This document shows, one piece after another, positions 8,648-51,224 of a DNA stretch of 54,115 nt. Location: assembly GCA_958009085.1 (NCBI GenBank), contig OY253676.1, positions 992,001-1,046,115 of the forward strand, given 5' to 3'. Below the pieces are notes generated by a model. It had not been told where the DNA came from. It did not search any database and saw only the letters and a program-made list of their open reading frames with translations. Position 1 is the stretch's first letter. Each line of letters starts with the position of its first letter. Position numbers and translations under genes: made by a program. Source of the DNA: Protoeuglena noctilucae. Lineage: Eukaryota.

Positions 8648-11600
8648 CTATCCCTTGAAGTTGTTCTTCACCGCCGCCTTGGCCATCTCCTTGGCGTGCC
8701 GCTCCTCCCGCCGCTTGCGCGTCTCCTGCCACTTGTACAGCAGTCCCCCGCGCGGGACGAGCGCCGCTGCGGAAAGCACGGAGATGTTCATACCACGCCT
8801 CATAGCGCAGGGCGTGCAGCGAAGCCGCGCGGGGGCGCAAGATGACTAAACAGCGATCGCAGGTGCCTGCCCTTCACCCGTGAGCATCCTCGCGGCCGGC
8901 ACGCTCGTCGCCGCGTCTCCCTTGTCCGCGGGCGCCGTCGTGGGCCCCGACACTTCCCCCCCGAAGAGCCCCTTCTCCATGTTCTTCTCGGCATAGGCCA
9001 GCTGGATGGCCAGGCCACTGCAGATGTTGCGGGAGCGGCTCACAGTTGAACGTGCAAAGCAACGAACACGCCAAGCCAGTGATGCACTCTCCCCAGCGAC
9101 CCGTGCCACCGTCACACAGCTCTCCCAGGCCCACAACACCACGCCCCTTTTGTCACACTCGCCTCTTGCGTTGTTCTCATCCACACACACATCGCATCCA
9201 CCCACACACACCTAACACACCCAAATTCGCCTGTTGCGGTACGTCTCGTCTGCCTCCACGGCCGGCCCCTCCCTCCGCGTCATCACGGCCCGGCTCACGT
9301 GCCCCGCCCTCAGCCCCCGTGACTCCCGGGTCTCACGCAAGGCACGGGGCACCTTGAGGGGATTGCGACGCTCGTAGAGACCCACCAGGGAATACACGCC
9401 ATCGCCATCTGCTGCGCCCGCTCCGTCCCCGTCCCCCTCCGCACTGCGATGCGTGGGGGCGGGCAGAAGTACATGTGTGGCGCTGAATGTGCCAAACACA
9501 CTCACGCAGCCCCTCACCAACCCCCCACCCCACCCCATCCCCCACTCACCCCACCCCGCTCGTCGTCTTTCGTGGCGACCTACCCCCTCCCCCACCCCCT
9601 CCCCCTCCCCTGCCCCCCATGTCCCTCCCCCTGGCCATCAGCTGCCCCGCTGACAGCCACACCAGCAGCCCCCCGTCGTATCCCGCGCTGACGTAGTGGT
9701 TGCTGTCTGACAGTTTCTGGACGCCAGAGATGCGGTCCCGGTGGCCCTGGAGGCGGGCCAGGATCTCAAAGGTGGACGCGTGGAACACCCTGGGGGGGAT
9801 GGGAGATGGAAAAAGAATGATGAGGGAATGGTGAAAGAAACTGATGCCGACGAAGGGCCGATGTGATGAGTGAGGCGTGGAGGAGTGCATTGACATTACA
9901 CCCACCCCCTCACCTTACCCCCCCATCTCTCACCTCAGCTGTTCGTCTGCCTTACACCTCAGCTATTTATCTACATACCCCCCTCCCCCCCATCTCTCAC
10001 CTCAGCTGCTTGTCCGCCATCGCCGCCACTAGAAACGCCTGCCTCTCCACCCCCTCCCTCGTCCGCACCGTCTGCCAGTCCAGCAGCATGCTCGTCACGC
10101 TCTGGCCGCTGAACGAGATCGACAGCCTAGGCACGGGCTTACTAGTTTCATTCTCGAAATACCACGCAACTAGCGCCTCGTCTTCCCCCGCCGTGATCCA
10201 CTCCCCCCACCCCCTGCCACGCGCATCGTCTGCCTCAGGCCCTTCTGGGTCTGATTCGGCCCCTTCCCCCCACTCCCCCTCAGACACTTCCTCACTCTCC
10301 AGCATCGCTGCGACGGGCGCAGACACCCCCGCTAAGGGGTCCACCAGTCCCGTGGGCTCCGGGGATGGTCCCTTGCTGCCAGACTCGGTGCCCTTCAGCA
10401 GACCCTCGCTCTGGTGAAGCACTTGTTCTAACATGTCCGCCTTCTGGGGGGATGGGAGATGGTGGGGTGTATGTTTGCAATACGATTGCTGTATGTTGTT
10501 GTTTGTACTTAGTCGAAGCGAGCAGCAGTGTGGTGGAGCGCAATGCGTGACCCATGCACATCTTAACCGGACTAGCACTGACCACAGCACCACCGCCACC
10601 ACCTGTCTCACCTCTTCCATAACACAATCAACCCTCCTCACTCCCCCCTTCTCACCTCATCCACCTTCTTGGCCACCACTTTGACCTCGTTCCCATCCTC
10701 ATCATAACGCGCGCCCTGCAGCATCGGCAACTCTGGCAGGCCCCCGCTCCCCCCCATCCCATCCCACGGATCAGCCAGCGACAAAGTGCGGGCAAACGAA
10801 CCGTCGCCCAGCCCCACGCCACCCCCGTGTTTCTGTCGCTCGCCCCCGCCCGCACCCGCACCCGCACTCGCGCTCGCATTCGGATCGAATCTCACGTGGC
10901 CCCCGTCCCCATCCCCAGTGCTTTTAGCAGCCATGACTGGCGAGGGCCCCAGCCTGGCCCCCACCCCCACCCCCCCCTCCGCCCCCACCCCCTCATTGCC
11001 AGCGATGATGGGGGCGAGGGGCTTCTCCCTCGGCCCGTCCATTCGGATCCCCACAGGCCCCCTCTGCATGCTGGTTTTGGGTAAAGGCTTCGAATCCCGG
11101 CGGGGGGAGGTCTGGGGCACCAGGCGACCCGACCTGGGGGAAATGAGAGTGGGGGAGAGGATCTATAGGGCAGTTTTTTTGTAAAGATGATGGTCAATAT
11201 CTGCAACGATACTAATGTCGATCATTTAACGCTTACCTCGATAAAGGAAGTGCTGGAGCATGTTACTGGTATGTCATTCATAATGTGGTCTTGCTGGTAG
11301 CACCAGCAATACCACCAACACATACCACCACCACCCCACCCTACATCCCACTCACTTGGTGCTCTCCCCGTTCCCGATCCTCCTCAGCTGGTTGATGCGA
11401 TCGTCTAATTCCTTGGCCTTCTTCCTATCTGCCCTCATCTTGGCAATCACGCCCTGCACCACCTTGGCCACCCCCCCCTCCAAACGCTTCTCCATCTGAC
11501 GCAGGTCCCTGAAAGCAGGATAAAAGGGCAATTTGATGATAAAAAGATTTATATCTTTTTATAACATTCATAGAATTAGTGGGGACGTAGTCGGGGTGAA

Positions 11601-48335: not shown

Positions 48336-51224
48336 ATGACGACGGGGGAGGACTGCGGGTGAGCGTCTAATGGCGCGTTGCCTAGCGCCCAGCACGGCGT
48401 GGCACAAGCCCTGCCCCCCTCCACGCTCCCCACCCCGCATCTCCCGCAGCCTCTCGCGGCCGTGGGACCCCCGCTTCGACCAGCCCGACATCCCCTCCAG
48501 TGATGACTTCTCTTCTGACCCCGCTGTGTGGGACATGGTCATCGTGGGGTCGGGGGTGGCGGGGAGCGCCCTGGCGTACCGGTGAGACGAGGCGGATGAT
48601 GATACCGAACGTGCTGTCGCATCATGTGATAGCAGGCGAAGAGCGCAGGCAGAGTTGCCGTGTCTTGCCACTGCATGCACAGCTGTCGCACGACCCCACA
48701 GCCAGGCACGCACTCAGCACTCGCACCTCCCTCCCCCCCTCCCCGCAGCCAGGCGATGGAGGGCCGCCGCGTGCTGGTGTTGGAGAAGAGTCTCTCCCAG
48801 CCCGACCGCATCGTGGGGGAGCTGCTGCAGCCGGGCGGCTTCCTGAAGCTGCGCGATCTGGGCCTGGCCGACTGTGTCGAGAACATCGACAGCTGCAAGG
48901 TGTACGGGTACGCGCTGTTCAAGGGGGGCCACGTCTCCTGCGTCAAGTACCCCACCGAGCACTACGCCTTCGAGGTGGCGGGCAGGTCCTTCCACCACGG
49001 GCGGTTCGTGCAGAAGCTGAGGGCCAAGGCCGCGTCCAGGTGGGGGAAGTAGGGGAGGCGGGGAGGCGCAGTTGGGGAGACGGCCAACATATGGGAGTGT
49101 AAAGAGTGCTAATGCGGACCCTTTCACTCCCCTGGTCCTCATGGCCACACCAGTCCCCCTCACCCTCCCCGATTACCATTCCCCCTCACCCTCCCTCACT
49201 CCCCCTCACTCCCCTTCACCCCCCCTCACCTCTCCCCCCCTCTCCCCCTCCCCCAGTCCCCTGGTGACGATGCGCCAGGCCGTGGTGCGCAAGCTGCTCG
49301 ACGTGGACGGCCGTGAGTGGGACGAGGCGAGCGGGCGACCCGTGGGGGGCGTGGCCTACCGCCACCACTCGGGGGAGGACCGGGAGGCAAGGGCCAAGCT
49401 CACGGTCGTGTGCGACGGGATGGTCTCCACCTTCCGGCGCAAGTTCACGGTGCGTGGGTGTGGGGGTGGATGGGGAGGGGGCGGTGGGGTGCGGGACAGG
49501 GCAGGGCACGCATCCGCAGTGACACAGAGCTCCCTTTCTTATCTCCCCCTTCCTCGCAACCCATGTATCCCATGCACCGCTATCCCATCTCTCCCCCACT
49601 CAGAACCCCTCCATCTCCTCCCTCTCCTTCTTCGTGGGCCTCCTCCTGGACGGTGCCCAGCTGCCCTTCCCCAACCACGGCCACGTGGTGCTGGGGGAGC
49701 CCAGCCCCACCCTCTTCTACCCCATCTCCTCCAACCAAGTGCGGTGCCTTGCGGACGTCCCGGGAAGCAAGCTGCCCAGCGTGGTGAGGGATGGCGGGTG
49801 TGGGGGTGTGAACATGCACGCACGCACGCGCGACCAAGCAGCCGCCCATTTGCGAGACGGTGTGCCTGTTGCTGCGAGGAGCCTGGCGGTGCTTTGAGAT
49901 GCGATGTCCCTATGTGGTTCACCGCTATCCACTTCTTTGAGATATCCCCACATGACTCACCGCTAGTATTGCTCCACTCAGACGGATGGCGCCATGGCCG
50001 AGTATCTCATGAAGCACGTGTTCCCCCAAGTGCCCGACATTTTGAAGGAGCCATTCAAGCAGGCAGTTGCCAAGGGACACTTCAAGGCCATGCAGAACAA
50101 GGCACTGGTGAGTATGCGTGTGTGTCAGTGTGTCATGCAGAACAAGGCACTGGTGAGCGTGGGTGTGGTGAAAGCATGCCAAGCAGAGCACAGCAATGGT
50201 GGATCTTGTAGCATGCTCGCACGCTCGCTTGCGTGCCTCCGCCTCATGCCCTGTCCCCCTCCCTCCCCCGTCCCCCGCAGTCGGCTCAGCCAGTGCAGGT
50301 GGCCGGCGCTCTCCTGCTGGGCGACGCTTACAACATGCGGCACCCACTCACGGGCGGGGGCATGACGGTGGCACTTAGGTCAGCGGCAGCGACATGCTCT
50401 GTCTCTCTCATTGCTACCCACTCCTCCCCTCGCAGCGACACCAAGCTGCTGTGCGACGTGCTGTGTGTTTGTCTCTCTCATTGCTACCCATTCCCTTGCA
50501 TCGCAGTGACACCAAGCTGCTGTGCGACATGCTCCACGGCCTCACTGCCGCGTCTTTGGGCGACCTGGACGCCGTGTCCCGCTGCACCCGCTCCTTCTAC
50601 CAGACCCGCAAGCCCCTCGCGGGCACCATCAACACCCTCGCCAACGCCCTCTACCGCGTCTTCTGCTGGTCGCCCTGGGAGCCCCACGAGGAGATGAGGC
50701 AGGCGTGCTTCGACTACCTCAGCCTGGGGGGGGTGTATTCCTCCGGGCCCGTCTCCCTCCTCTCCGGGCTCAACCCGCGCCCATCCGTCCTCGTCATGCA
50801 CTTTTTCATGGTGGCGCTGTTCGGGTGCGGGAGGCTGCTGCTCCCGCGCCCCACGCTGCGCGGGGTGTGGATGGCCGTCCTGCTCCTCTACTGCGCCTGC
50901 CGCATCATCCTCCCCATTATCGCCAGCGAGGTGAGCGCAGATGCTGGCTGGATGCCTTGCTACGCACCGCCCGTCTCGCATGCTGGGGCGCACATGCTGT
51001 GGCAGAGGGGCAGGGTACCTGGTGCACCATCCTGCACCTCTCTGCACTGTTCTGCACCTCCCTGCACCATCCTGAACCTCTCTGCATCTCACACACCCCC
51101 CATCCATCCCACTCAGGGTGTCCTGGCCGTGTTCCTCCCCGGCCTCATGGCGCCCCCCTCAACGGACTCCTCCCTCGCCGACAAGCTGCCCCACGCCGGC
51201 GCGACGACCAAGAAGCACGACTAG
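48336..51224 (+). CDS. SQE: Squalene epoxidase (squalene monooxygenase)
   Basis: [95 protein letters not shown]. Confidence 0.96.

Follow-up and report, generated by a model that had tools for sequence, protein, structure and literature searches.

In intron 7 (IVS7) of the human F7 gene, a minisatellite consists of 37-bp units, the first of which spans the boundary of exon 7, and the identical pseudo-sites within IVS7 are silent because the most upstream site is chosen (PMC1557585). In the green algae Chlamydomonas reinhardtii and Volvox carteri, Zhao et al. found tandem repeats to be densest in introns and biased to the intron ends (PMC3887541), and several models explain intron gain or intron sliding by the tandem duplication of a proto-splice-site segment (PMC2891723, PMC3265369). 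Here, we analysed a stretch of 54,115 nucleotides (nt) from contig OY253676.1 of Protoeuglena noctilucae (positions 992,001 to 1,046,115, forward strand), called the window in the following, in which the end of an exon together with its splice site is found again inside the adjoining intron. An earlier note on this DNA had named such copies splice-site echoes, and the term echo is kept here. The pattern is real, dense and locally generated, and it represents a variant of the junction-spanning tandem duplication known from human F7 IVS7.

As in F7, the intron repeats the exon end and the donor downstream of the authentic donor, and protein homology supports the use of the upstream site at three donor junctions. 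A boundary-spanning unit with splice-site copies in the intron is established by homology at four junctions and at the others by our gene model, a hidden Markov model (HMM), and 10 of 11 donor copies retain the consensus. The F7 units follow each other head to tail over their whole length, which applies here to only 3 of 11 donor loci and to the acceptor locus, whereas at the other 8 donor loci only a patch is repeated. Moreover, F7 represents a single locus, whereas about one in ten introns (~9%) of the 54-kb window bears an echo, mostly in two copies and often as an isolated patch of 25-40 nt, and the copies are here presumably silent. The likeness to the Chlamydomonas and Volvox repeats includes the organism, a green alga, the excess of repeats in introns over intergenic DNA (8.5% versus 0% here) and their position near intron ends. 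However, that study dealt with units of 1-50 bp within annotated introns, the parts of it consulted here describe no repeats that include exon end and splice site, and instead of its U-shaped excess at both intron ends the window shows an excess at the 5' end only. The intron-gain models have in common with the echoes a short tandem duplication at or near coding sequence that generates duplicate splice signals, but there a new intron originates from duplicated exon, whereas here an existing intron is extended and the echoes contain pre-existing intron sequence. Intron ends that are copies of the neighbouring exon interior, the 5' end resembling the downstream and the 3' end the upstream exon as after duplication of an AGGT-containing exon segment, were not found with exon probes (0/114 on each side), and nothing in the analysed data shows the seeding of new introns that the earlier note had suggested.

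Introners of Micromonas, Aureococcus and fungi are dispersed mobile element families residing in introns. Like the echoes, they are repeated sequence in the introns of an intron-rich alga; however, each copy in the window stems from its own junction, dispersed similarity is missing, and junction probes reach scores of at most 14 against other introns. Templated insertions of the polymerase-theta type consist of short nearby patches in direct as well as inverted orientation. Direct patches are present in the window, but local inverted repeats occur at chance level (20 pairs versus 18 in the control). Within an incomplete collection of papers, we found none reporting that exon ends with their splice sites are copied throughout the introns of algae, and papers retrieved on splice-donor repeats in Chlamydomonas describe no junction echoes.

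Direct repeats of 17-60 nt, 76-100% identical and spaced by 45-160 nt, were found by repeat search and self-blastn at 15 of the 16 places listed in the earlier note; at 13503-13570 only 12-13 nt match by eye, and this intron is not among the 16 whose donor probe exceeds the null of other introns. A scan of the window requiring at least 20 matches in 24 positions at offsets of 25-300 marks 1524 positions in 26 loci, compared with 66, 136 and 106 positions at control offsets 1000, 3000 and 7000 further out. Chance can hence be rejected, because local direct repeats are more than 10 times as frequent as in the far-offset controls. Far matches in the self-blastn are limited to five exon matches of one paralogous gene pair. 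Since inverted repeats are at chance and a dispersed family is absent, the copies are local and direct and do not belong to a mobile family, as the earlier note had maintained. The echo copies differ from their sources by substitutions, and an independent ENA contig of 1153 nt (P0002) is collinear with 50394-51221 at 99.6% identity, including the acceptor echo, which makes an assembly artefact unlikely. Based on the approximate labels of the gene model, 8.5% of the intron positions but 0% of 9381 nt of intergenic DNA lie within a detectable local duplicate; the copies therefore do lengthen introns.

The gene model is a self-written two-strand HMM, trained on the window itself, with a three-periodic exon state, weight matrices for donor and acceptor, and G-rich 5' and C-rich 3' intron states. 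The model comprises 149 exons with a median length of 121 nt and 132 introns with a median of 156 nt, and it was checked by homology on the genes for three proteins, namely squalene epoxidase, DNAAF11/TilB and an NIF/FCP1 phosphatase. For squalene epoxidase, the Pfam profile runs without gaps across the predicted exons, and the junctions are fixed by homologues and by the uninterrupted open reading frame (ORF) of a relative (contig L001); for DNAAF11, 9 of 9 predicted exons agree with homologues, and for the NIF phosphatase, homology confirms the intron 42210-42485. The composition of introns is polar: in 19 homology-supported introns, from the genes at 32.2-34.5, 41.4-43.5 and 48.4-51.2 kb, the first third contains 41% G and 17% C and the last third 43% C and 14% G. 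Because the G-rich start and the C-rich end are symmetrical, an intron looks alike on either strand. GC-AG introns also occur; the GC donor at 42210 is confirmed by homology, further GC donors were placed by the HMM at 13545 and 13855, and the self-trained donor matrix has C at +2 in 21% of the predicted introns, which may be an overestimate.

According to this model, 11 of the 26 loci span a donor junction. In all of them the exon end (16-31 nt) and the GT or GC donor are copied 45-101 nt into their own intron at the level of at least 20/24. They comprise 10 of the 13 donor-side echoes claimed in the earlier note (at 9918, 14005, 15323, 25146, 26614, 27113, 33974, 34451, 42191 and 50089) and one new locus (12532/12586). 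The other three claims fell short, because the repeat at 39080 includes only 6 exon nt, the one at 13692 lacks the splice site, and the one at 13503 is not significant; 13692 and 39080 are below 20/24 yet above the other-intron null. From three claimed acceptor-side echoes, 50396-50530 is borne out by homology, 17815-17915 turned out to be internal to the intron of a minus-strand gene, and the copies at 28560-28666 are possible acceptors. The junction echoes are distributed over 6 genes in the HMM model, not over the at least 7 unrelated genes counted before, and Tandem Repeats Finder (TRF) detects only 3 of 14 junction loci. The remaining loci of the scan are one acceptor-spanning locus (50389-50534), six intron-internal ones, two further ones (17795-17917, which is internal, and 28501-28678 with a possible acceptor), two similarities between coding exons, and three in low-complexity segments with doubtful labels; finally, the locus 14429-14532 pairs an intron segment with the interior of the next exon and is not counted among the 20 intron-associated loci.

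In the squalene epoxidase gene (50089-50167, plus strand), 34 nt around the junction 50107|50108 recur at 50134-50167 with 91% identity, and the Pfam SE profile goes from 122 to 124 across the intron. In the DNAAF11/TilB gene (33964-34105, plus strand), the echo of the junction 33994|33995 covers 60 nt at 34046-34105 (88%), and homologous proteins continue directly from the residue encoded at 33994 to that at 34178. The NIF/FCP1 phosphatase gene (42184-42395, plus strand) has three copies of exon end plus GC-type donor; those following the junction 42209|42210 are 94% and 65% identical, and in the relative's protein ...PIH is directly followed by RYH..., from which the intron is located to 42210-42485. 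On the minus strand, 14011-14295 is a whole-unit tandem array of 3.3-4 units of 81-93 nt (TRF period 81, 3.3 copies), whose last unit in plus coordinates spans the donor junction 14270|14271 next to an exon with a WD40 match in Pfam (14272-14409); its four copies are 71-88% identical, and the rest of the unit is significantly similar, too.

The other minus-strand echoes are shorter. At 9918-10018, a source of 34 nt (9985-10018, HMM junction 10000|10001) recurs at 9918-9951 with 91% identity and a spacing of 67, accompanied by a partial third copy at 9955-9972, and the probe score is 20.5 against a null maximum of 14. The new locus 12532-12614 consists of a 29-nt source (12586-12614, junction 12593|12594) and its echo at 12532-12560 (90% by self-blastn, spacing 54, probe score 21.5), and at 15317-15393 the 27 nt of 15367-15393 (junction 15377|15378) are repeated at 15317-15343 (81%, spacing 50, probe score 13.5). 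Among the weaker loci on this strand, 18 nt of exon end at 13857-13874 next to a GC-type HMM donor (13855|13856) have a copy without splice site at 13697-13714 (94%, spacing 160, probe score 15.5 versus 11.0 for the 99.5% level of the null), and 39080-39178 is a mostly intronic tandem repeat of 50-56 nt in three blocks (80-89%) that takes in the donor 39172|39173, with a probe score of 12.0, barely above the null. Another four echoes are on the plus strand. At 25145-25283 the source 25145-25181 with the donor GT at 25173 is repeated at 25216-25252 over 37 nt (97%, probe score 34) and in part at 25270-25283; 34 of 35 positions agree in the junction piece, but the rest of the unit is at the null level. 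The clearest patch is at 27108-27241, where 33 nt around the donor 27134 are found again at a distance of 101 nt downstream with 97% identity, after an unrelated spacer of 68 nt, and the rest of the unit has z=-0.3. In contrast, at 26610-26747 an entire unit of 66-72 nt is duplicated in tandem across the donor 26632, with z=4.5 for the rest of the unit. At 34450-34557 (donor 34474), 46 nt are 76% identical, the first 22 nt even 95%, and the GT consensus is gone in the echo.

At the acceptor side, 50389-50534 (plus strand) is a whole-unit tandem duplication of 71 nt with 1.9-2.1 copies, the last of which has the used acceptor 50506|50507 (TRF, homology). The locus 28501-28678 (plus strand) contains 2-3 units of 79-89 nt with a strong acceptor-like motif, and rounds of the HMM differ on whether the exon starts at 28659 or 28751. 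At 17795-17917, a duplication of 38 nt (89%, spacing 85) is located in the C-rich 3' half of a minus-strand intron and was ruled out as an acceptor echo, being an internal repeat of this intron. One intron-internal tandem duplication of 49 nt in 2.1 copies was found by scan, HMM and TRF at 23243-23345 (plus strand), and further ones are at 3723-3788, 5211-5334, 17547-17617, 41274-41345 and 51020-51089.

The copy that encodes the conserved protein could be identified at four junctions, and in 4 of 4 cases it is the outer one: the conserved protein needs the first donor (50108, 33995 and the GC-type 42210) or the last acceptor (50506|50507). Protein homology informs on the conserved product and says nothing on minor isoforms. 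The intact decoy donors predicted by the earlier note are indeed left behind, since 10 of 11 echoes keep the GT/GC consensus. On the plus strand, echo donors lie at 25244, 26698, 27235, 34077, 42288, 42388 and 50153. Use of an echo donor would result in a stop or a frameshift in 9 of 11 cases, and stop-free in-frame extensions would arise only at 26698 (locus 26610-26747, 22 residues) and 50153 (locus 50089-50167, 15 residues); the spacing is a multiple of three in 5 of 11, i.e. without preference. The echo donors are probably silent.

Whether the junction is a special place was addressed with probes compared to their own introns in 114 introns of at least 90 nt, using the other introns as null. 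The donor probe (-26..+10) exceeds the 99.5% level of the null in 16 of 114 introns and reaches a score of at least 18 in 10, the mid-intron probe does so in 15 and 3, the acceptor probe in 4 and 1, and the exon probes -60..-25 and +25..+60 in none at either level. When each of the 20 intron-associated loci is placed uniformly, given its own intron length and spacing, 5.6 donor-spanning loci are expected and 11 were found (P for at least 11 = 0.01), compared with 1-3 acceptor-spanning loci versus 5.6 expected and 6-8 internal ones versus 8.8. A downstream copy exists for 7-10% of the positions at -30..+15, for about 3-4% of those further inside the intron and for no more than 1% of the exon positions beyond -31, and an upstream copy for 1.4-3.8% of the positions near the intron 3' end. 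The donor excess is thus real, yet only about 2-3 fold and based on small numbers, and part of it is expected, because one junction partner is constrained and what stems from the exon is complex in sequence. That acceptor copies are scarce agrees with selection against an additional acceptor upstream. Of the enrichment at junctions over the intron interior, for which the earlier note proposed a test, only this modest donor excess was found, with the mid-intron probe doing almost equally well at the weaker threshold (15 versus 16), and the acceptor side is depleted. Duplications internal to introns are common as well, whereas the intergenic DNA of the model is devoid of any local duplicate.

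For the mutational mechanism and the selective filter behind the pattern, we infer that the echoes are young products of a general short-range duplication in direct orientation that acts on intron DNA and is filtered by splicing, rather than of a new mechanism specific to splice sites, and give this explanation a probability of roughly 0.55. The echoes would then be the visible part of the process, where it overlaps a junction. Either slippage during replication or a switch of template backwards by about 25-100 nt would underlie the duplication. With a median of 156 nt in the model, introns are short and the copied stretch is large compared to them, so that many of the surviving events would include an intron end. 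Events at the 5' end would be tolerated, because splicing still starts from the authentic upstream donor and removes the copy together with the rest of the intron. At the 3' end most events would disappear, since the spliceosome would probably choose a duplicated upstream acceptor, and events inside exons would be lost as well. The junction copies may look particularly striking, because one partner is held by coding and splicing constraint and the exon-derived part is complex, unlike the G-rich intron start, which would become scrambled. The identity range of 76-100% is as expected for a continuous turnover.

Several observations weigh against this explanation. The repeat at 8 of 11 donor loci is confined to the junction piece of 25-40 nt (78-97% identity), and a null-calibrated comparison finds the rest of the supposed unit no closer than unrelated intron starts; because the youngest echoes are of this patch-only type, simple tandem duplication followed by decay fails to explain the patches. 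The exon part measures 6-31 nt in 13 of 13 cases and does not exceed 0.42 of the spacing (0.42^13 = 1e-5), the lack of any exon part of at least 38 nt among 11 has a probability of 0.002 under uniform placement, and the exon probes did not recur in their own intron. The 9381 nt of intergenic DNA free of duplicates also contrast with the 8.5% of intron positions, with 3 of 26 loci being in segments with doubtful labels. Furthermore, the gene model is self-made, its uncertainty enters every junction-dependent count, and it was wrong at two homology-checkable places, both corrected: the donor 25488 was moved to 25512, and the mini-exon called at 50436-50462 is false, being an echo. Echoes misled the HMM twice, since an early round preferred the second donor copy, at 50153, and this mini-exon was predicted in the final round. 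The view that most loci are whole-unit tandem duplications was abandoned, since the null-calibrated test backs only 3 of 11 (26610, 33964 and 14011-14295), besides the acceptor locus 50389-50534. The spacers between patch copies have only chance-level matches in the window (at most 16 nt at 94-100% or 19 nt at ~89%), and no other source in the window was found for the 68-nt spacer at 27108. A short backward template switch of limited length would fit both the patch-only structure and the narrow exon part, and the donor-like, G-rich sequence of which intron starts are full would facilitate the return. Selection could limit the exon part as well; work on G triplets in small vertebrate introns suggests that the border of the intron is marked by a G-rich tract following the donor. 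The template jump considered in the earlier note suits the 8 patch-only loci better than plain tandem duplication does.

A possible, though rather doubtful, alternative to the general duplication process is a mutational process anchored at the junctions: G-runs after the donor would stall replication or transcription, repair would copy the preceding 25-40 nt back into the downstream sequence, and intron 5' ends would become hot spots. The patch-only structure of 8 of 11 loci and the narrow exon part of 6-31 nt, with patches that end just past the donor consensus, speak for this idea, as do the peak of duplicated positions at -30..+15 (7-10% versus about 3-4% further in), the duplicate-free intergenic DNA and the G-rich first third of introns (41% G, 17% C in the 19 homology-supported introns). 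However, internal and acceptor-proximal duplications also occur in C-rich intron halves, whole units are duplicated in plain tandem at three donor loci and the acceptor locus, donor junctions exceed uniform placement only 2-fold with n=20, an echo on contig L025 of another alga includes about 50 nt of exon, and detection favours complex exon-derived sequence. In its bolder and somewhat less probable form, a direct-only copy-back process would have its hot spots at the 5' ends of introns, in this alga and probably also in intron-rich green algae related to it. A segment of 25-40 nt with exon end and 5' splice site would be pasted into the intron at a distance of 45-100 nt, and the G-rich tract behind the donor would serve as the anchor. 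If true, copy-back would rank among the main causes of intron growth and continually supply decoy donors, a part of which would be in frame.

It seems unlikely that the echoes are kept by selection, be it as 5' splice sites with a decoy or enhancer function or as alternative donors for extra isoforms or regulated unproductive splicing. The consensus donor is kept in 10 of 11 echoes, those at 26610 and 50089 can be read through in frame without stop, and the junction patch is far better preserved than its surroundings; but the identity extends over 16-31 exon-derived nt that are needless for a decoy, which argues for youth instead of constraint, and at about 10% divergence neutral decay leaves most GT dinucleotides intact anyway. 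Moreover, there is no frame preference, 9 of 11 echoes would give a stop or frameshift, and homologous proteins do not contain the insertions. Finally, an assembly artefact or chance similarity in low-complexity introns is highly improbable, because the compositional bias of the introns and the possibility that runs with all sampled words of 12000-21900 are source data are outweighed by the far-offset and other-intron controls that reject chance, by the substitutions between copies, by the independent ENA contig with the acceptor echo and by the same pattern on L025.

The pattern is not confined to this genome. Contig L025 (61% G+C) was obtained from metagenome contigs encoding relatives of the squalene epoxidase exon, and its squalene epoxidase gene has two donor echoes, one with about 50 nt of exon and the other in three copies, as well as an acceptor echo in three copies and a copy of the stop-codon region. 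In the latter, at 4944-5056, 30 nt of the coding end including the stop codon recur with 97% identity 83 nt downstream in the presumed 3' untranslated region, i.e. a gene-end echo. Local duplication loci reach 0.6-0.9 per kb on several other algal contigs, compared with 0.48 here, and are absent from others. The earlier note did not recognise the pattern at such density from other genomes, but L025 has four echoes in one gene, and tandem repeats at intron ends are published for two green algae (PMC3887541).

If the pattern is genome-wide, it offers a view at sequence level on how short introns grow in green algae and how often perfect decoy 5' splice sites arise beside real ones. The alga would then also be a natural test bed for how the spliceosome chooses the first among identical donors, a question mainly studied on one human minisatellite. 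Automatic annotation may be misled by echoes, as our HMM was twice. In addition, the patch-only structure together with the strict limit on the copied exon could point to a specific mutational mechanism.

The squalene epoxidase genes show other differences among these algae. The intron positions of the window mostly differ from those on contigs L014 and L025. On L001 (1-3935, 75% G+C), from a relative with 84% identity in the squalene epoxidase exon, squalene epoxidase and NIF phosphatase are uninterrupted ORFs arranged tail to tail, with a third ORF beyond. Either this relative lacks all introns that the window has in these genes and possesses another gene order, or the contig was assembled from transcripts.

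The window has a G+C content of about 63% and many short GT/GC-AG introns. Proteins of Micractinium, Haematococcus, Chlorella and Tetraselmis share 70-73% identity with its squalene epoxidase exon, so that the organism, an intron-rich marine alga, is a core chlorophyte green alga. Sampled words of the window are partly present in four marine metatranscriptome runs. Pfam matches on predicted exons identified a WD40-repeat gene at ~8.6-16.2 kb (minus strand) and a long coiled-coil gene at 22.6-29.7 kb (plus strand), and in addition genes for a short-chain dehydrogenase, an FOP/LisH protein, Ycf54, DNAAF11/TilB, an MIB/HERC2 RING protein, the NIF/FCP1 phosphatase, squalene epoxidase and Snf7. A comparison of a large exon of the WD40-repeat gene with representative proteins returned a self-like ORF and one giant protein and nothing else; because the exon search yielded so little, the five echo junctions of this gene are placed by the HMM only. 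For a coiled-coil exon, the homologue search provided a single relative (P0001), and a metagenome scan with the resulting alignment gave no locus.

Besides the echoes, the window contains other repeats. At 53881-54115, about 40 head-to-tail copies of the hexamer AGGGTT (TTAGGG in another phase) reach the right end of the window (TRF); this array looks like a telomere with the vertebrate-type repeat, its G-rich strand pointing outward as at a chromosome end. The same type of repeat is also found interstitially with 3.3 copies at 28167-28186. A paralogous tandem gene pair on the minus strand (5480-6238 and 7278-8180) shares five exon blocks of 84-97% identity in the self-blastn, with diverged introns of different length. 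Finally, TRF revealed long low-complexity C-rich or G-rich tracts and minisatellites of 12 or 60 nt at 11865-12017, 36850-37260, 37500-37700 and 44080-44990, where the labels of the HMM are doubtful.

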